Shown: piece by piece, positions 10,873 to 32,590 of the stretch
Layout of the letters: each line of letters starts with the position of its first letter
How positions within the stretch are numbered: position 1 is the first letter of the stretch
Notes under the pieces: model-generated
Databases searched by the model: none
Told to the model about the DNA's origin: nothing
The model's input: the letters and a program-made list of their open reading frames with translations, nothing else
NCBI GenBank assembly: GCA_963705665.1
Contig: CAVPKQ010000050.1
Span: 3,580-67,579, forward strand
Direction: 5' to 3'
From: an uncultured Acidobacteriaceae bacterium
GTDB lineage: Bacteria > Acidobacteriota > Terriglobia > Terriglobales > Acidobacteriaceae
DNA: 64,000 nucleotides
Position numbers and translations under genes: made by a program

Positions 10873-11199
10873 ATGCGCATGATGCTCAAGGTTTCAATTC
10901 CTGTCGAGGCGGGCAACGCCGCAGCTCGAAATGGCAGTTTGGGGTCCACTATCCAGGCCATTCTCGATGATTTGAAACCCGAAGCAGTGTACTTTACCGA
11001 AGAGAATGGCGAGCGGACCGCCTATGTATTTTTCGACATGAAGGAATCGTCACAAGTGCCGGCCATTGCGGAGCCCTGGTTTCTTGCCTTCAACGCGAAG
11101 ATCACATTGCGTCCGGCCATGAACGTGCAGGATCTCGCCGCCGGCGGCTCGGGAATTGAACGGGCGGTAAAGAGCTACGGCAAGTCCGCGCAGTTCTGA
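10873..11199 (+). CDS. Conserved small hypothetical protein
   Basis: An AAGGAGG-like RBS sits 8 nt before the ATG at 10873. Sequence [41 protein letters not shown]...[13 protein letters not shown] recognise it as a widespread uncharacterised family but cannot name the family. Confidence 0.55.
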
Positions 11200-11271
11200 C
11201 CCTCCGCAGCTGATCTTCTAATTAGGGAGCAGGGGTCAGAATTGGGAATCTGGATTCTGAAACCACTCACC

Positions 11272-11907
11272 CTACGAGTTCTGGGACGCCGTCCTTTGAC
11301 GCATTTCACCGGCTAGCTTTGAGGCTGCCACGCAAATGTCACCAAAAATTCTCGCCTCAAACAGGGTTTGCGTTCCAGCGCTCTCCTGAAGTTCAAGAAC
11401 ATGCTTCCGCAGTCTGCGATAAGTCCACATCATTTGTGGTACGGCTGGCTGACTGTGTCCGCGCCGCACGAACGCATTCCCAAGCTCACGCATCACTCCC
11501 TCGACCGTACCGTCATGAATATTGAAATCCGTGCCATTAAGGTCGCTGATCGACTTTAAAGCCCTTCTAGGCTGAGTTTCAGTTACGAACCATGTATGCG
11601 CGCCGCGATTCAACTTGGCCCAGGCAATCGCAAGACCCAGTTCCAGGGGCATATTGAAGCGTGGAGTCGCCGGAGCGGTCCAATCCAACTGAACACGAGA
11701 GAGGTCATGCATGGAATACCGGCAGCTTTGGATTAGCTTGAAAATTCGGTCCAACCGGCGCTCTCCACCCGGAATCTCCAACGTGGCGCGAGGAGAAAGA
11801 CCCAACACGCTGAGTCCTGCGATGTATGCCAGGTATAGCCTTTCGAATGCGCTGTCGTAAGGAATATTCAAGAAGACGGAATTGCGATCAACCCTTGGTT
11901 TGGGCAC
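11272..11907 (-). CDS. Hypothetical protein with a possible TIR / nucleoside 2-deoxyribosyltransferase-like N-terminal domain
   Basis: 211-aa ORF with motifs VFLNIPYD, CRYSMHDLSR and RFNMPLELGLAIAW. Local GC is lower than the surroundings. No family was confidently recognised. Confidence 0.5.
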   Translation of the reverse strand: MPKPRVDRNSVFLNIPYDSAFERLYLAYIAGLSVLGLSPRATLEIPGGERRLDRIFKLIQSCRYSMHDLSRVQLDWTAPATPRFNMPLELGLAIAWAKLNRGAHTWFVTETQPRRALKSISDLNGTDFNIHDGTVEGVMRELGNAFVRRGHSQPAVPQMMWTYRRLRKHVLELQESAGTQTLFEARIFGDICVAASKLAGEMRQRTASQNS

Positions 11908-12163
11908 CGCTCACCGTTCGGCCCTGGGGTGATGTTGCGGGTTTTCTGTGCGTTGTGCTGGTCTTCTTAGCTGCTCCCCGGCCGTTCTTGAAGCCCGATC
12001 TCCGCCTGGCCTGAAGCGTAGATCGGCTCTTGCGCTTCGCGCTCGGGGTCTCAGAGCCAACGATTTCCGCGATCTCCTGTTGCCGTTGGCGGGAAACCCC
12101 CAAGCGGGCCGCCACTTCTTCCGGCGAGAGGAACGGTGTCGTGATGATTACAGAGTGGCTCAT
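11888..12163 (-). CDS. Small putative DNA-binding protein (HTH plus basic tail)
   Basis: MSHSVIITTPFLSPEEVAARLGVSRQRQQEIAEIV is followed by a Lys/Arg-rich tail. A GAAGGA RBS precedes it. It overlaps the downstream 211-aa ORF by 20 nt. Confidence 0.4.
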   Translation of the reverse strand: MSHSVIITTPFLSPEEVAARLGVSRQRQQEIAEIVGSETPSAKRKSRSTLQARRRSGFKNGRGAAKKTSTTHRKPATSPQGRTVSGAQTKG

Positions 12164-19231: not shown

Positions 19232-19251
19232 GAGTGTGCATTCATTCCCGG

Positions 19252-19290
19252 AAAGCAGATTCCCTTCGGGAATGACAGAAAGAAAGGCAA
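19252..19290 (+). repeat. Repeat family A copy 1 (aaagcagattcccttcgggaatgacagaaagaaaggcaa)
   Basis: 39 nt identical to 32552-32590. It contains the internal hairpin ATTCCC-ttc-GGGAAT and lies 21 nt after the stop of the isomerase gene. Confidence 0.85.
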
Positions 19291-19364
19291 AGACGGATTA
19301 CCTTAGCCCTTATCCGCCGCTGCTTCCCTCGATTTGCAATGCTCCGGGCCTTTTGTATTTGTGG

Positions 19365-19465
19365 TTGCTTTTCTTGTCTGTCATTCCCGCAGGGAATCTG
19401 CTTCTGCTCTCTCGGGCATACTCGTAAAGTAGATTCCCTTCGGGAATGACAGACAAGAAAAGAGG
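19365..19465. repeat. Inverted pair of repeat family A copies (19365-19403 inverted, 19427-19465 direct)
   Basis: The reverse complement of 19365-19403 (aagcagattccctgcgggaatgacagacaagaaaagcaa) nearly equals 19427-19465 (aagtagattcccttcgggaatgacagacaagaaaagagg). The two could form a ~39-bp stem with a 23-nt loop. Confidence 0.8.
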
Positions 19466-22438: not shown

Positions 22439-22714
22439 ATGGCTGCAGAAGAAGCTGTTCGCTGGAACGTTAAGGTCTCGAAAGAGACCGACGCTTCGCT
22501 GCGCTCCTTTCTCGGCTCACAAGGCATGAAAAAGGGCGACCTTTCAAAGTTCATCGAGCAGGCAGTGCTCGTCCAGGTCTTTCATCGCACTGTAGAAGAC
22601 ATTCACGCACGCAACCGGGACGCCGATCAGAATGAAATCCAGGCCGAAATTGACGCCGCGCTCCGCGAAGTGCGTCACCAAGCCAGAAGCCACACGCGGG
22701 ATCGCAAAGCGTAG
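22439..22714 (+). CDS. Ribbon-helix-helix antitoxin-like protein
   Basis: VRWNVKVSKETDASLRSFLGSQGMKKGDLSKFIEQAVLVQVF shows a beta-strand plus two helices, the RHH pattern. It lies directly upstream of a PIN-family remnant. Confidence 0.6.
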   Translation: MAAEEAVRWNVKVSKETDASLRSFLGSQGMKKGDLSKFIEQAVLVQVFHRTVEDIHARNRDADQNEIQAEIDAALREVRHQARSHTRDRKA

Positions 22715-23129
22715 CTCGCGCGCGTTGCTCTTGACACTAATGTGCTGATTTCGGCCTTGTTGGTTCCTCTCGGAGTTCCGGGAGCAATTTATGGCGCCTG
22801 GCCCGAAGGCGCGTTTACGCTGCTGATCTCGGACGAGCAGCTCGCGGAGCTTCGCCATACCCTCAGAAAGCCTGCTTTGGCCGCACGTATCCGCCCGCAT
22901 CGCGCCGGACGCTTGGTTAATCTGCTGCGGAAACTCGCCGACGATGTCGGACCTTTGCCGCGTGTCGAACGGTCGCCCTGATCCTGACGATAACTTTCTG
23001 TTGGCCATGGCTGAAGCAGGCCAGGCTGAATATCTGGTCACCGGCGATAAGAGCGGCTTGCTCGCGCTGGTTCGTCATGGCGGCACGCGGATCGTCTCCG
23101 CCCGCGAGTTTGTGAATCTGCTGACCTGA
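22715..23129 (+). pseudogene. PIN-family (PIN_3 / TIGR00305-like) toxin, lacking a start codon before the first catalytic Asp and frameshifted
   Basis: LARVALDTNVLISALL follows the antitoxin TAG in the same frame with no ATG/GTG/TTG before DTN. ORF 22742..22981 ends in VERSP*. The family motif continues in the +1 frame (RPDPDDNFLLAMAEAGQAEYLVTGDKSGLLAL, ORF 22944..23129). Confidence 0.65.
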
Positions 23130-23548
23130 CGGGACACGCCGCTAGTCGGTAAGCTTTCGAGAGAATTCTGTCGAACGCCTTTCCAATTCGGCGCTTGGCA
23201 GGAATGCCTTTTTGGGGATACAAATAAGTCCGTAAGCTCCGGGGCATTTCCGCTGTGATTCCAGGCGGCAGCCGTCCCGGAAAACACATCCAAAAACGGG
23301 ACCACACTCGTAAAGTCAATATCGGATCGCAAATTTATGTTTTCCGCCGGTAACTTTGCGACGCTTCATTACTCTCACGCTGTGTTGGATCGGCGGAATA
23401 ACGAAGCGAAGAGATGATTGCAACAAGCGCAAATTCCGTTCGCATCGCAGTAAAGGCCGGCTCCGGACTGCGATGGCACACCACCGACTTTCCTCAACTC
23501 AGGACTGGGGAACCGGCCTGACGCTCAACTTAGAAAGGGTTAGCCCAC

Positions 23549-23848
23549 ATGACCAATAGTGTAAAAACTCTCATCCTCACGGCGGCCGTAACTGGCTTCC
23601 TCGGCGGCACCACGACCCGTCTGCAAGCCCAACCTGCTAGCAACGGAAACTCCACCGCGACCAGCAATGCTGGCGTGTTGGCGCATTCCACCGACTTTAA
23701 GACAAAGGTGCCCAAGCATTCCTGCAAAGGCCAGAACAACTGTAAAGGCCAAGGCGGCTGCAAATCGAGCGACAATGGATGTAAGGGAAAGAATAGCTGC
23801 AAGGGTAAAGGGGGCTGCGCGACCGACGGCTCCAAGATGCCCGGCTAG
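23549..23848 (+). CDS. Sec-signal-bearing Cys-rich precursor peptide (bufferin/HvfA-like, six Cys)
   Basis: A GAAAGGG RBS precedes the signal peptide MTNSVKTLILTAAVTGFLGGTTTRLQAQP. The core is HSCKGQNNCKGQGGCKSSDNGCKGKNSCKGKGGCATDG, made of two CKGxNxCKGxGGC half-repeats. It lies immediately upstream of the DUF692/DUF2063 genes. Confidence 0.7.
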   Translation: MTNSVKTLILTAAVTGFLGGTTTRLQAQPASNGNSTATSNAGVLAHSTDFKTKVPKHSCKGQNNCKGQGGCKSSDNGCKGKNSCKGKGGCATDGSKMPG

Positions 23849-23864
23849 TTGCATCTCCTCGGAA

Positions 23865-23888
23865 GAGCCGGCGCCCAACCGCCGGCTC
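23865..23888 (+). promoter_or_regulatory. Intercistronic GC-rich stem-loop between precursor and maturase genes
   Basis: GAGCCGGCG-cccaac-CGCCGGCTC is a perfect 9-bp stem, 17 nt after the precursor stop. It is not followed by a T-tract, so it fits an attenuator or mRNA-stability element better than a full terminator. Confidence 0.5.
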
Positions 23889-23955
23889 CCCCATTCGAAT
23901 CAGATCCCGTCTTTTGCCCAGGAAGACGGGACCACGTTTACCCGGGATCCACGAC

Positions 23956-24852
23956 ATGCCAGCAAATCGCTTCAACGGATTTACCGAGTATGGGGTTGGA
24001 ATTGGCCTTCGCATTCCCCACTATCGGCATATCTTGGGTGAAAAACCAACTGTAGATTGGTTTGAGATCATCTCCGAGAACTACATGATCGACGGGGGCC
24101 GTCCGCTCCATGTGCTCGATCAGATCCTGGAGCAATACAAGGTCGTGCAACACGGCGTCTCAATGTACTTTGGCTCCGCCCAGCCTCTCAACCGCGAGCA
24201 TCTCAAGCGGCTCAAGACGCTCGCCCGGCGCACCAAAACGCCTTGGCTTTCGGATCATCTCTGCTGGGGGAGTGTAGATGGAAGATATACCCACGATCTC
24301 CTGCCTATCCCGTACACCTTCGAGGCGGCCAAAATCACTGCGGAAAAAGTCCGTCAGGTGCAGGATTATCTGGAGATCCCGGTGGTAGTCGAAAACGTCA
24401 GCAGCTACGCCGAGTTCCATGAGTCGGAAATGACGGAATGGCAGTTCCTCAATGAGGTTGTCGAGTCCGCCGATTGCGGCATTCTTCTCGATGTCAACAA
24501 CATTTACGTTTCATCGCAAAATCACGACTTCGATCCTTTCGTTTATCTGAACAGCGTTCCCGCGGAGCGGGTGGCCCAGATTCACATCGCCGGGCACTCC
24601 AAATATCGAAAGTACATTCTCGATACCCACGATCACCCGGTGATCGATCCCGTCTGGCGCCTCTACGAGCGGGCCATCGAGCGCTGCGGCTCTACGCCCA
24701 CCTTGCTTGAGTGGGATGACAATATCCCCTCCTTTGACGAAGTTCACGCCGAGGCGCTCAAGGCCAACTTGTATCTGAACAAGGCAGCCAAGCGCTGGCA
24801 GGTTCCTCCCCATGCGGCAGAGGGCTCTTCCCGCCTGGAGCTGAGCCGATGA
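23956..24852 (+). CDS. DUF692/UPF0276 family protein (MbnB-like multinuclear non-heme iron oxidase, MNIO)
   Basis: GVGIGLRIPHYRHIL...VDWFEIISENYM...VQHGVSMYFGS...PWLSDHLCW...VVENVSSY...LLDVNNIYVSS is the typical DUF692 TIM-barrel pattern. The ATG at 23956 is preferred over the TTG at 23914. Confidence 0.88.
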   Translation: MPANRFNGFTEYGVGIGLRIPHYRHILGEKPTVDWFEIISENYMIDGGRPLHVLDQILEQYKVVQHGVSMYFGSAQPLNREHLKRLKTLARRTKTPWLSDHLCWGSVDGRYTHDLLPIPYTFEAAKITAEKVRQVQDYLEIPVVVENVSSYAEFHESEMTEWQFLNEVVESADCGILLDVNNIYVSSQNHDFDPFVYLNSVPAERVAQIHIAGHSKYRKYILDTHDHPVIDPVWRLYERAIERCGSTPTLLEWDDNIPSFDEVHAEALKANLYLNKAAKRWQVPPHAAEGSSRLELSR

Positions 24853-25766
24853 CTCTGCTCCAGCTGCAACGGCAAATGGCGGATGCCGTGATGCGTCCCT
24901 TGACCACCCGTTGGGGTATGCAGAAAAAAACCGCCGATGGCAAGGCGGTGGCAGACGAGGCTGAGAGGTTTATCAAACCTAACCGGCGCCTGACCTCGTT
25001 TGAGCGGCTTGAGATTTATAACCGGCAATATTGGTTTCGCGTGCTGTCGGCACTGGCGGACGACTTTCCCGGTCTCGAAGCAGTGGTAGGGAAACGGCAA
25101 TTTGAGAAGCTCGCGCGCGCCTACCTGGAAGCCAATCCTTCACGCTCGTTCACCCTGCGCAACCTGGGGTCGAAGCTCGAGACCTGGCTGCGCGCCAACC
25201 CGGAATGGGCCGGCCCGCGCCACGCACTGGCTCTAGACGTGGTGCGTCTGGAATGGGCTTACGTCGAGGCCTTCGATAATGGGCAGGAGCCTGCTCTCTC
25301 TCTGGCCGATCTCACCGGGCTGGGAGCCGATTCCTGCCTCTCCTTGCAGTCCCATGTGCGCCTGCTGGAATTGGATTTCTCGGTGGATGAATTCACTATC
25401 GATTTGCATCGCAGGCAAGCCGCCGCCAGCGTCGCGAGCAATGCCATGTCCGGCGTGGGAGGACCTGCGCGCCACAAGCGTCTGAACTCCTTTCCTCCCA
25501 GCAAGACCCATCTCGCCGTGCATCGCTTCGAAAACATGGTCTATTACAAACGGCTGGAACGGGAAGCCTACCATCTGCTGCAAATTTTGCAGAACAACGT
25601 TCCGTTGGGCGACGCGCTGGAGAAGACCTTCGAAAACAGCGCAATCCTCCCGGAGGAACAGGCGGCGCGCATTCAGCAATGGTTTTCGAGTTGGGCGGAG
25701 CTGGGATGGTTCTGCCGCCATCGCAAGGCTAAACCGCAGCCCCGCGCCGCCGAAAAGAGAGCCTAA
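24849..25766 (+). CDS. DUF2063 family protein (MbnC/HvfC-like MNIO partner)
   Basis: The ATG overlaps the DUF692 stop (ATGA). LEIYNRQYWFRVLSALADDFPGLEAVVGKRQFEKLARAYLEANPSRSFTLRNLG matches the DUF2063 N-terminal domain pattern. Confidence 0.8.
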   Translation: MTLLQLQRQMADAVMRPLTTRWGMQKKTADGKAVADEAERFIKPNRRLTSFERLEIYNRQYWFRVLSALADDFPGLEAVVGKRQFEKLARAYLEANPSRSFTLRNLGSKLETWLRANPEWAGPRHALALDVVRLEWAYVEAFDNGQEPALSLADLTGLGADSCLSLQSHVRLLELDFSVDEFTIDLHRRQAAASVASNAMSGVGGPARHKRLNSFPPSKTHLAVHRFENMVYYKRLEREAYHLLQILQNNVPLGDALEKTFENSAILPEEQAARIQQWFSSWAELGWFCRHRKAKPQPRAAEKRA

Positions 25767-26270
25767 GTGGCGGGTGACGGTCTGATGGGTCGAATGCTGG
25801 ATCGGGTTTTCGCCGCATACGCAATCTTCTTGAAGGCCGCCTCCAGCTTGCGTTCGCCCTTTCTCCTGCTGGTGCGCCTCTATTGGGGTTGGCAGTTCAC
25901 CCAAACCGGGTTGGGCAAACTGCACCACCTGCCTCGAGTAGCGCAATTTTTTTCCAGTCTGAATATCCCGTTGCCTGGCGCAAGCGCCGCTTTTGTTTCC
26001 TGGCTGGAAGTGGTGGGCGGGATCCTGCTGATCCTTGGCCTGGCTTCGCGAGTTACCGCTCTTCTGCTCGCCATTGACATGTTCGTCGCCTATCTCACGT
26101 CAGACGTGATGGCGCTGCACGCGGTAATCTCCAATCCGGGCAAGTTCTACAACGCCGATCCGTTTACCTTCCTATTCGCCGCCTTGCTGATCCTGATCTT
26201 CGGCCCGGGCAAGTTCGCGCTCGATTCCTTTTTGAGGTGGCGCCAAACCCGCTCTCCCTCGAAGCCGTAG
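25767..26270 (+). CDS. DoxX-family membrane protein
   Basis: The GTG comes directly after the DUF2063 TAA. There are four hydrophobic segments, LLLVRLYWGWQFTQTGLGKL and GASAAFVSWLEVVGGILLILGLASR. Confidence 0.8.
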   Translation: MAGDGLMGRMLDRVFAAYAIFLKAASSLRSPFLLLVRLYWGWQFTQTGLGKLHHLPRVAQFFSSLNIPLPGASAAFVSWLEVVGGILLILGLASRVTALLLAIDMFVAYLTSDVMALHAVISNPGKFYNADPFTFLFAALLILIFGPGKFALDSFLRWRQTRSPSKP

Positions 26271-26294
26271 AAAGCTTTCCCGTCAGCAAATACT

Positions 26295-26335
26295 GGGTGC
26301 CCCAGGTCCCTGATTCTGGGACCTGGGATTCCACG
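26295..26335 (+). repeat. Repeat family D copy (hairpin CCAGGTCCC-tgattct-GGGACCTGG)
   Basis: gggtgccccaggtccctgattctgggacctgggattccacg. An inverted copy at 30220-30259 is ~90% identical. It lies between the convergent DoxX and anti-sigma genes. Confidence 0.8.
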
Positions 26336-26450
26336 GATCTCGATAGAAAGCATCGTCGAGATTTGCGGAATCCCACGTCCGAGAATCCGGACGTGGGGCA
26401 CTCAAGATCGGTTAGAGGAGGAGCTTCAAAAGCCGTGCGCCGGAGGCCTG

Positions 26451-26705
26451 TCATCCTTTGCCACTGTCATCGCGGCCAATCTCCGCGGCGATCCGCGCGT
26501 GCAGCCGCTCGCCATAGCCCAGGGGCAGAGTGAAGATGCGGTCATCGGCGGTAAGCACCAGGATGTTGTGGACCGAATCGAGAATGGCGGAGCAGATCTC
26601 GCAATGGGCAAGGTGCAGCTCGATGGCTTCCCGCTCTTCCGCACTCACCGAGTGGTCGATGTAGTCGGAAATATAAGACCACACGTGCTTGCAATCCAGC
26701 CTCAT
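26451..26705 (-). CDS. Soluble zinc-binding anti-sigma factor (zf-HC2, RsrA-like)
   Basis: 84 aa with no hydrophobic segment. It has C5 and the HLAHCEIC motif (H31-x3-C35-x2-C38). The ATG overlaps the ECF sigma stop (ATGA at 26702-26705). Confidence 0.75.
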   Translation of the reverse strand: MRLDCKHVWSYISDYIDHSVSAEEREAIELHLAHCEICSAILDSVHNILVLTADDRIFTLPLGYGERLHARIAAEIGRDDSGKG

Positions 26706-27340
26706 GCGCGGCCTCCCATCCAGGAGAAAAGCCGCCTGCGGACTGGAATCCGCCGCTTGAGATACGGCGCCAGCTGCTTCTGCAAAAGCATGCGCGCTCT
26801 GAAGAGACGGACCTTCACCAGGCCGGTGCTGACACCGAGGATAGAGGCGATCTCGTCGATGGCCAACTCTTCTTTGTCCCGCAGAAGAAAAACCTCGCGG
26901 TAAGCCGGAGATAGCTCGTCAATCGCCTGCTCGATCCTCTTGGCAAGCTCCTCACGCTCCAGGACCTCGCTGGGAATCTCCCGCCAATCGGCGAGAATGA
27001 AAGGAGTGAAGTTATCCTCGCTTCCGCTGTTGGTGTCTAGAGACTCCAGGGCCGCCCTGCTCATTCGCCGTAATCTCCCGCGGGCTTCGTTGACAACGAT
27101 CGATAGCAGCCAGGTGCTGAACTTAGCCTCACCGCGAAAACCGGCCAGGGCCCGATACGCTTTGATGATCGCCTCCTGAGCGACATCCTCCGCATCCGCT
27201 TCGTTCTTGACTATAGAAAGCGCGGTGACGTAGACCGCGCGCTCGCAGGGCCGAATCAGCTCATGGAAGAGCTGCTCTTCTCCATTCAGAATGCGCGCGA
27301 TCAGATCGAGCTCACCGCTTTGATTCTCGGATCTACCCAT
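26702..27340 (-). CDS. ECF-type RNA polymerase sigma-70 factor
   Basis: Region 2 (AEDVAQEAIIKAYRALAGFRGEAKFSTWLLSIVVNEA) and region 4 (SPAYREVFLLRDKEELAIDEIASILGVSTGLVKVRLFRARMLL) are both present. The start is ambiguous, either ATG at 27340 or TTG at 27370. Confidence 0.88.
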   Translation of the reverse strand: MGRSENQSGELDLIARILNGEEQLFHELIRPCERAVYVTALSIVKNEADAEDVAQEAIIKAYRALAGFRGEAKFSTWLLSIVVNEARGRLRRMSRAALESLDTNSGSEDNFTPFILADWREIPSEVLEREELAKRIEQAIDELSPAYREVFLLRDKEELAIDEIASILGVSTGLVKVRLFRARMLLQKQLAPYLKRRIPVRRRLFSWMGGRA

Positions 27341-27439
27341 GCGTTCAGTATGTCTGCCATTTCCCCGCAAATTGGATGCTCAGGGCGGATTCAGGTTACA
27401 CCGGGACGGCGAGTCTTCATCAGCTAGACTTGGAAGTGT

Positions 27440-30174: not shown

Positions 30175-30259
30175 GGGTGCCCCAGGTTCGCGAAGCTAAG
30201 CTGGGGCTTTTTCGCGATTCGTGGAATCCCAGGTCCCAGAGTCGGGACCTGGGGCACCC
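30175..30259. repeat. Repeat family D: partial direct copy plus inverted copy forming 12-bp inverted arms just after alaS
   Basis: gggtgccccagg (30175-30186) pairs with cctggggcaccc (30248-30259). The inner hairpin is cccaggtccc-agagtc-gggacctggg. The structure starts 24 nt after the alaS stop and may act as a terminator. Confidence 0.7.
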
Positions 30260-30283
30260 GGGATTTGTGGTCATCTTTTGGCA

Positions 30284-32551: not shown

Positions 32552-32590
32552 AAAGCAGATTCCCTTCGGGAATGACAGAAAGAAAGGCAA
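32552..32590 (+). repeat. Repeat family A copy (identical to 19252-19290)
   Basis: 39/39 nt identity. It lies in the convergent intergenic region between the MFS and DUF2961 genes. Confidence 0.85.

Follow-up and report, generated by a model that had tools for sequence, protein, structure and literature searches.

The stretch of DNA considered here (the window, 64,000 nucleotides at its full length) belongs to contig CAVPKQ010000050.1 of an uncultured Acidobacteriaceae bacterium, and the reading of its open reading frames (ORFs) revealed an intact four-gene cluster, bufA-bufB-bufC-doxX, on the plus strand at 23549-26270. The cluster encodes a small Cys-rich peptide, a DUF692 protein belonging to the MNIO family (multinuclear non-heme iron oxidases), a DUF2063 protein and a DoxX protein, and is proposed below to be a biosynthetic locus of a bufferin, one of the RiPPs (peptides made by ribosomes and modified after translation). 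The genes are as follows (aa, amino acids).

23549-23848, plus strand: bufA, bufA2-like precursor gene, 99 aa, with a signal peptide, a variable linker and a six-Cys Gly/Lys-rich core (KHSCKGQNNCKGQGGCKSSDNGCKGKNSCKGKGGCATDGSK)
23956-24852, plus strand: bufB, MNIO (DUF692) bufferin maturase, 298 aa, assigned by NF050167, PF05114 and alignment with 3BWW
24849-25766, plus strand: bufC, DUF2063 / PME1 partner, 305 aa, assigned by PF09836, with an ATGA overlap with bufB
25767-26270, plus strand: bufD (doxX), DoxX membrane protein, starting at GTG 25767 or ATG 25785, assigned by PF07681 and kept in fourth position at 69 of 72 related loci

The genes are tightly packed, as an earlier note made from the letters alone had described: the TGA of bufB overlaps the ATG of the translationally coupled bufC in the tetranucleotide ATGA (24849-24852), and the stop of bufC at 25766 is followed with zero spacer by the GTG at 25767, an in-frame ATG at 25785 being an equally possible start of doxX. 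The GC content of the cluster is the same as that of the surrounding window DNA, and bufA is the sole gene of its type, there being no other small Cys-rich ORF of this kind within the 64 kb.

Profile models of Pfam and NCBIfam, with their curated cut-offs, were applied to six ORFs. The bufB product reached 366 bits with PF05114 (cut-off 25) and 359 bits with the bufferin maturase model NF050167 (cut-off 310), and fell under the cut-offs of the HvfB model (264 bits, cut-off 360) and of the methanobactin enzyme MbnB, TIGR04159 (43 bits, cut-off 325). The bufC product scored 62 bits with PF09836, the DUF2063 N-terminal domain (cut-off 27.2), its C-terminal part, where partners of this kind have an RRE-like domain, reaching 18.8 bits with NGO1945_C (under the cut-off of 27) and the whole protein 40 bits with the HvfC model (under the cut-off of 142); it found no sequence match in PDB and presumably shares the fold family of 3DEE. 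The doxX product scored 66 bits with PF07681 (cut-off 23.6) and 60.6 bits with the HvfX family (under the cut-off of 80). Thus, the DUF692, DUF2063 and DoxX domains of the four-gene reading put forward in the earlier note came out above the Pfam cut-offs, as it had predicted. Its label of a bufferin/HvfA-like system held in the first half, as Buf2 of the BUF_6/12Cys or 'Cys-Lys' branch; the second half, the HvfA or oxazolin branch with its EGKCG repeats, had to be given up on the HvfB score.

The 99-aa precursor contains exactly six Cys residues, at positions 59, 65, 71, 78, 84 and 90, in the spacing C-x5-C-x5-C-x6-C-x5-C-x5-C and in the form of two half-repeats, CKGQNNCKGQGGC and CKGKNSCKGKGGC, all as first described for 23549-23848. 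Lys comes directly after the first five Cys (CKG, CKG, CKS, CKG, CKG), the last Cys standing in CAT, and the EGKCG motif is absent from the peptide. By heuristic criteria the N-terminus has the layout of the Sec-type signal peptide that had been claimed for it, with one Lys, a hydrophobic stretch of 12 residues (mean hydropathy about 2.0) and then small residues; the same layout, with one or two Lys/Arg in the n-region, is found in the window peptide and 26 aligned relatives, and the cleavage site is ambiguous, lying between residues 19 and 27. The BufA2 model NF050166 matched the precursor with E 1.8e-11 and 44 bits (cut-off 60), and it matched all 27 aligned relatives at E <= 0.01 (best 1.1e-13). 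Since such scores stay under the cut-off, the public relatives carry the label 'hypothetical', and every relative with a source name is indeed a 'hypothetical protein'. The Pfam scan at E <= 0.01 gave no precursor match to DUF2282 (PF10048), the family of the four-Cys Buf1 precursors, as against the six Cys found here. The AlphaFold2 model of the precursor had no secondary structure (mean pLDDT 47, pTM 0.15), a result obtained from a shallow alignment of 27 sequences and no proof of disorder. DUF7640 of Pfam, with 20 bits under its cut-off on the precursor, was dropped as a candidate family because only two of the 26 relatives match it and it turned up in no paper.

The description of bufferins dates from 2024 and concerns two peptides of Caulobacter vibrioides with Sec signal peptides, the four-Cys BufA1 (DUF2282) and the six-Cys BufA2 (BUF_6/12Cys), whose Cys residues are converted to 5-thiooxazoles by the MNIO BufB together with the DUF2063 protein BufC; both are copper-binding and protective under copper stress, and DoxX can be dispensed with (PMC11626156). 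In the sole characterised Buf2, modification affects the four central Cys, the outer pair probably being joined in a disulfide (PMC11626156); the upper limit of six modified Cys given in the earlier note may still apply to the window core. A survey of 2025 gave the precursor, MNIO, DUF2063 and DoxX as the core of bufferin clusters (PMC12452194). The window cluster resembles Bufferin 2 (BufA2-BufB2-BufC2, CCNA_03001-02999) in its Sec-type signal peptide, six conserved Cys, Cys-Lys-rich core, BufB-model MNIO with an Asp-Asp dyad and a DUF2063 gene directly downstream in the order A-B-C. It differs from it in possessing doxX, which the Caulobacter buf2 operon lacks, in a precursor under the NCBIfam BufA2 cut-off, whose linker of some 30 aa is variable and whose Gly/Lys-rich core has no confident predicted fold, in the neighbouring genes for an extracytoplasmic function (ECF) sigma factor and a zinc anti-sigma (ZAS) protein, as compared with a distant SigF/NrsF pair in Caulobacter, and in belonging to Acidobacteriota rather than Pseudomonadota. 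With Bufferin 1 (buf1ABCD, SigF/NrsF) the cluster shares the precursor-MNIO-DUF2063-DoxX layout and the neighbouring ECF sigma and anti-sigma genes, whereas the precursor of the latter system belongs to DUF2282 with four Cys, to which the six-Cys window precursor has no match, and its NrsF is a membrane anti-sigma, that of the window being a soluble zf-HC2 protein.

The more distant relatives are separated by both peptide and enzyme. The oxazolin (HvfA) and fontiphorin (FonA) systems likewise combine an MNIO and DUF2063/PME1 pair, a DoxX-like HvfX and an exported Cys-rich substrate, with a product that is probably a 5-thiooxazole copper binder; however, their substrates carry EGKCG repeats with Lys before Cys, whereas in the window peptide, devoid of EGKCG, Lys follows Cys, the HvfB, HvfC and HvfX models all remain under cut-off on the window proteins, and the enzymes differ in Asp versus Phe. 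This residue, directly after the catalytic Asp, is Phe in MNIOs acting on Lys-Cys (EGKCG) substrates and Asp in those with substrates of the Cys-Lys type, BufA2 being one (PMC13097082). The bufB product aligns with PDB 3BWW, an enzyme of the Lys-Cys type, at E 3e-51, with LLEWDDN opposite LLERDFN; thus, it has Asp-Asp where 3BWW has Asp-Phe, and the LEWDD motif is kept in 81 of 82 related loci. The Asp-Asp dyad fits the CK-rich core of the precursor. Methanobactin (MbnA/MbnB/MbnC) is alike in that an MNIO-family enzyme modifies Cys of a ribosomal peptide to give a copper ligand. It differs in that neither an MbnA-like leader/core peptide nor MbnC was matched among the six ORFs scanned, that genes dedicated to export or uptake are absent, that MbnB scores 43 bits against 325 on the window enzyme, and that methanobactin is a secreted chalkophore, the window product being predicted as Sec-exported and periplasmic.

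Accordingly, the cluster is read as a Buf2-type bufferin ('Cys-Lys' captophorin) biosynthetic locus, bufA2-bufB-bufC-bufD(doxX), in an Acidobacteriaceae genome, with a probability of roughly 0.8. It adds a soil-bacterium example to a published family, the kind of system being already known; for the chemistry and the copper function of the window cluster we infer, by homology, those of the characterised members. That the MNIO would install another modification, such as a methanobactin-type oxazolone-thioamide, in place of 5-thiooxazole appears very improbable: MNIO chemistry is diverse, and the two groups are equal in mass and have been confused in the literature, but the window enzyme reaches the BufB model and lies far below the MbnB cut-off (43 vs 325 bits), while the oxazolin assignment itself has been revised from oxazolone-thioamide to 5-thiooxazole and MNIO-PME1 pairs have been proposed as general 5-thiooxazole makers (PMC13097082).

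The Buf2 reading is extended by the distribution of the cluster. Precursor relatives number 6,835 at E <= 0.001 in a 90%-clustered collection, and the family comprises 1,566 clusters in a 50%-clustered library. The core KHSCKGxNxCKGxGGCKxxDNGCKGKNSCKGKGGCATDGSK is nearly invariant, the six Cys being invariant in two alignments, as against the linker of about 30 aa after the signal peptide, which varies; the number of relatives and the nearly invariant Cys core together indicate that the small ORF is more than a chance reading frame. The exact window peptide had no match in the contig collection, the nearest being P0001 with 93% identity. When one genome per species was scanned, at least 584 genomes contained a precursor relative, and the best 80 of them were all of Acidobacteriota, class Terriglobia, including Acidobacteriaceae, Terracidiphilus, Granulicella, Silvibacterium, Bryobacterales and the cultured Edaphobacter aggregans DSM 19364. 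Gene order was counted in 72 loci with enough flanking DNA from different Terriglobia species, and the order bufA-bufB-bufC-doxX was kept in 69 of them, so that the co-occurrence of the peptide upstream of the MNIO, named in the earlier note as a check, holds across relatives. The median identities to the window proteins are 60% for BufA, 82% for BufB, 49% for BufC and 58% for DoxX, BufB being the most conserved. The closest relatives, L002 and L003, share the syntenic succession of S9 peptidase, recX, buf cluster, sigma/anti-sigma and alaS genes.

The same gene order bears on the reading in which the peptide is exported unmodified or only disulfide-bonded, as a metallothionein-like protein, and the MNIO and DUF2063 proteins serve another substrate. 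A sizeable share of the database Buf precursors is not situated beside an MNIO (PMC12452194), and the precursor lies under the BufA2 cut-off. However, bufA is found immediately upstream of bufB-bufC in 69 of the 72 loci from many species, the window offers no other small Cys-rich ORF of its type, and the Asp of the MNIO matches a Cys-Lys substrate. This reading is considered very improbable.

The survey also contains, in its supplementary table, Buf_6-12Cys precursors with adjacent MNIO, DUF2063 and DoxX numbers in Candidatus Koribacter versatilis and an Acidobacterium genome, and a third Acidobacteriaceae genome with adjacent precursor, MNIO and DUF2063 accession numbers (PMC12452194). The literature search found no paper characterising an acidobacterial bufferin. 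Thus, the earlier statement that no member from this phylum had been characterised agrees with the literature searched, but acidobacterial Buf2 clusters had already been tabulated (PMC12452194).

Two hairpins occupy the space between bufA and bufB.

23865-23888, plus strand: hairpin GAGCCGGCG / CCCAAC / CGCCGGCTC, with a perfect 9-bp GC-rich stem and a 6-nt loop, 16 nt past the bufA stop
23905-23931, plus strand: second hairpin, with an 11-bp stem and a 5-nt loop, just upstream of the bufB start

The first one is the perfect 9-bp stem-loop that had been noticed at this place. The second covers an alternative start of bufB, TTG 23914, and bufB therefore most likely starts at ATG 23956. The bufA-bufB intergenic region folds far better than its shuffles (z = -4.1). 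Across 87 loci the best minimum free energy of a 40-nt segment within 70 nt past the bufA stop averaged -22.2 kcal/mol, versus -11.9 in shuffles and -10.5 in controls taken upstream of bufA, and a hairpin at or below -18 kcal/mol was present in 79% of the loci versus 6% of the shuffles and 1% of the upstream controls. Both structure and position are kept (median about 13 nt past the stop), while the sequences differ between loci. This stable post-bufA hairpin, conserved in position and not in sequence, is a new detail of the analysis. The rarity of T runs past the stem, detailed below, indicates that it is not a canonical terminator. As to the suggestion that the hairpin sets the stoichiometry of precursor and enzyme, the feature proved to be conserved, and it may act by partial termination or by protection of a processed 3' end. 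The putative 160-nt 5' untranslated region of bufA folds no better than shuffles (z = -1.3) and the Rfam scan of 23100-24100 gave no match, so no riboswitch-like element is proposed; a generic scan for sigma-70 promoters and terminators returned nothing informative near bufA.

Beyond the operon, on the opposite strand and convergent with doxX, there is a pair of regulatory genes (26451-27370), and two promoter-like sites accompany the operon and the pair.

26451-26705, minus strand: zf-HC2 (ZAS) anti-sigma, soluble, 84 aa, with C5-x25-H31-x3-C35-x2-C38, assigned by PF13490
26702-27340, minus strand: ECF sigma factor, assigned by Sigma70_r2, r4_2 and TIGR02937, with a likely start at ATG 27340 and an ORF extending to TTG 27370
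23350-23380, plus strand: M2, a promoter-like element (GTAACTTTGCGACGCTTCATTACTCTCAC) of the form GTAAC-N16/17-ACTC, some 200 nt before the ATG of bufA
27374-27400, minus strand: promoter-like site TGTAACC-N16-ATCC upstream of the sigma gene, whose GTAAC -35 element is common to M2

The sigma factor scored 108 bits with TIGR02937 (cut-off 42.9) and the anti-sigma 41.6 bits with PF13490 (cut-off 22.2). The latter answers to the definition of a ZAS protein, with a zf-HC2 domain, H-x3-C-x2-C and an upstream Cys, encoded beside an ECF sigma, and a hydrophobic stretch of transmembrane length is absent from its sequence. All 29 anti-sigma orthologues beside buf clusters carry the C-x25-HxxxCxxC motif. 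The pair is similar to SigR-RsrA in the small soluble anti-sigma, the ligands C-x25-H-x3-C-x2-C and the gene directly following and overlapping the ECF sigma gene. However, the window anti-sigma reaches 26 bits on the RsrA model (cut-off 62.5) and is outside the RsrA equivalog, and SigR-RsrA belongs to another phylum and regulon. The RsrA-like ZAS class senses thiol oxidation. Orthologues of the sigma and anti-sigma (at least 45% identity) were found within 7 kb of bufA in 28 of the 72 loci, in five arrangements: on the bufA strand and upstream (14 loci), on that strand and downstream of doxX (nine loci, including one variant order), convergent, divergent, and divergent with doxX moved ahead of the sigma gene. 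The earlier note had taken an ECF sigma as a hallmark of bufferin loci; one does adjoin the cluster, but sigma and NrsF genes were reported for Buf1 and not Buf2 clusters (PMC12452194), and the anti-sigma is of the zf-HC2 and not the NrsF kind.

M2, which in related loci has the form TGTAACC-N-(C)ACTC(C/T)TA with 16-17 nt from GTAAC to ACTC and stands 95-250 nt upstream of bufA, is proposed as the ECF-type promoter of the buf operon, its promoter function being suggested by the following distribution. It is the best-conserved block in the upstream-region alignment of two clades. Strict matches in 2.25 Mb of locus sequence numbered 38, 27 of which lie upstream of bufA; three others precede a divergent doxX, heading a doxX-sigma-anti-sigma operon in L004 and L005 and doxX alone in L043. 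The M2 matrix exceeded the 99th percentile of the background in 41 of 84 bufA upstream regions, and it did so in 25 of 29 sigma-adjacent loci versus 16 of 55 others (Fisher p = 6e-7). The relaxed pattern, sought over the whole 64-kb window, occurs at two sites only, 23350-23374 before bufA and 27400-27374 before the sigma gene. The latter site, also present in the syntenic loci L002 and L003, together with the N-termini of homologues suggests ATG 27340 as the sigma start. Where the sigma gene is part of a separate transcription unit, namely in the window lineage, in L082 and in L004/L005, a similar site precedes it. These placements suggest that the window ECF sigma may drive the buf operon. 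The -35 part of the SigF promoter of Bufferin 1, GTAACC-N16-CGAA (PMC3511200), also resembles the GTAAC of M2, the -10 part being different. The recurrent ZAS/ECF pair with a shared promoter-like motif is a further new detail of this analysis.

The regulator bears on the reading in which the same modified peptide has a role other than copper, binding another soft metal (Hg, Au, Ag, Cd) or protecting against periplasmic or thiol oxidative stress. The adjoining anti-sigma, a soluble and RsrA-like ZAS protein, has its four ligands complete and is of a class known as thiol-oxidation sensors, thioredoxin/DsbH-like and AhpC/Redoxin genes occur among the neighbours in relatives, the flanks of the window cluster are free of copper efflux and oxidase genes, and published MerC-Buf2 fusions suggest mercury as the metal of some members (PMC12452194). 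Against this, both Caulobacter bufferins respond specifically to Cu in their induction and give protection from Cu but not from Fe, Zn or Mn (PMC11626156), and in one relative the cluster is situated beside genes of cytochrome c oxidase, a copper enzyme. On balance a role outside copper is considered unlikely, and the copper-binding Buf2 locus is retained in what follows.

Taken from the Caulobacter homologues, the course of events would begin with the synthesis of the 99-aa precursor in the cytoplasm, where the iron- and O2-dependent BufB with BufC would oxidise several Cys of the CKG core to 5-thiooxazoles, with about 4 Da lost for each; the Sec system would then export the peptide with removal of the signal peptide, and the mature basic peptide of about 70 aa would bind excess periplasmic copper. 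DoxX would be a conserved accessory membrane protein; its Caulobacter counterpart is dispensable. From the comparisons made here, the post-bufA hairpin may raise the ratio of precursor to enzyme transcript, via partial termination or 3'-end protection, and the ECF sigma, held by its soluble RsrA-like zinc anti-sigma, may drive the operon from the GTAAC-type promoter under thiol or metal stress. A wider proposal, that the cluster represents a distinct Terriglobia Buf2 subclade with a disordered Lys/Gly-rich 'CKG' precursor having five or six, and not four, thiooxazole Cys, and with an operon switched on by the dedicated cytoplasmic RsrA-like anti-sigma/ECF sigma at a GTAAC-type promoter, is offered tentatively and is, as a whole, rather doubtful. 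If true, it would couple cytoplasmic thiol or copper stress to the production of a periplasmic metallophore, unlike the SigF/NrsF control of Buf1 and in clusters of the Buf2 type from which sigma genes were reported to be absent.

Several observations weigh against this picture in its different parts. As to the peptide, the score of the precursor lies under the curated BufA2 cut-off (44 vs 60 bits), and it has no confident AlphaFold fold, whereas Caulobacter BufA2 reportedly models as a small folded protein. As to the hairpin, the window copy is devoid of a U-tract, and five or more T within 9 nt past the stem are present in just 13 of 86 loci. As to the regulator, 44 of the 72 clusters have no sigma gene nearby, the -10 parts of the promoter-like sites of bufA and sigma differ (ACTC vs ATCC), no M2 was found upstream of the sigma gene in the 14 loci ordered sigma, anti-sigma, bufA, and the loci are phylogenetically related, so that the Fisher p = 6e-7 for the link of M2 with sigma overstates their independence.

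Among RiPP classes, the bufferins (captophorins) now rank with the most numerous, every characterised example being from Pseudomonadota. Acidobacteriaceae are dominant and hard-to-culture soil bacteria, and the four-gene Buf2 cluster is near-universal and highly conserved there. The presence of Buf2 in Acidobacteriota had already been catalogued, and the additions are modest: the hairpin, the ZAS/ECF pair with its motif, and an annotation gap by which thousands of Buf2 precursors escape automatic naming and remain 'hypothetical protein', the remedy being a lower cut-off or a clade-specific BufA2 model. The cluster further brings a candidate regulator and a candidate promoter, and a cultured carrier is available in Edaphobacter aggregans DSM 19364 (L052), with the order bufABCD-sigma-anti-sigma.

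The half-repeat of the precursor is present in extra copies in some relatives (P0029, P0121, P0142, P0152 and others), nine Cys being found in P0029, and some relatives of 160-190 aa contain two or three full matched stretches; thus, the CKGxNxCKGxGGC half-repeat behaves as a module. Among the variants of the cluster, L081 (3759-9097) contains a pair of complete buf clusters, placed back to back and on opposite strands, and in L025 (3764-5870) two bufA genes flank the sigma/anti-sigma pair. In L004 and L005 (6263-9420) the gene after bufA encodes a longer MNIO (345 aa), bufC was not found at these loci, and the divergent doxX-ECF sigma-anti-sigma operon preceded by M2 is adjoined by a RES-domain toxin gene. 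The buf cluster of L001 (501-10572, in a 4.97-Mb contig) lies downstream of COX2, COX1 and COX3 and is followed by a 597-aa thioredoxin/DsbH-like protein, a context with a possible link to copper-enzyme or redox physiology. In L003, whose precursor is 93% identical, an IS481-family transposase is placed between doxX and the anti-sigma gene (10881-12041), which indicates that the sigma pair can become physically separated from the cluster.

A second conserved bipartite motif, M1 (CAATCCG-N17/18-CGTA), was seen in 38 loci (e.g., L006, L014-L016, L019, L023 and L024) at 87-232 nt before bufA; most of these loci have no sigma gene nearby, and M1 may mark a different regulator. It is often followed by ATGTAGTCTAAT, and its window copy is degenerate. 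One more structured element lies between the convergent doxX and anti-sigma genes.

26301-26327, no strand assigned: perfect 10-bp palindrome CCCAGGTCCC-TGATTCT-GGGACCTGGG

It may serve as a bidirectional terminator. The palindrome is contained in the first copy of an intergenic repeat of about 55 nt, found at 26287-26343 after doxX and in the opposite orientation at 30212-30267 after alaS, which may be an element resembling repetitive extragenic palindromes (REP) or miniature inverted-repeat transposable elements (MITE), or a bidirectional terminator. Upstream of the cluster, between recX and bufA (22439-23129), the window carries a toxin-antitoxin-like pair of an RHH_6 antitoxin (22439-22714, 86 bits) and a PIN_3 toxin; the latter is split into overlapping ORFs in different frames (22742-22981 and 22944-23129) and is probably a frameshifted pseudogene. 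No RHH_6 or PIN_3 genes were called at the equivalent position in the syntenic relatives L002 and L003. Finally, a short palindromic repeat, GATTCCCTTCGGGAATGACAGA, occurs in four copies in the window (19243-19462 and 32558-32579), none being expected by chance, and three of the copies, in both orientations, lie in the intergenic DNA that precedes the S9 peptidase gene.

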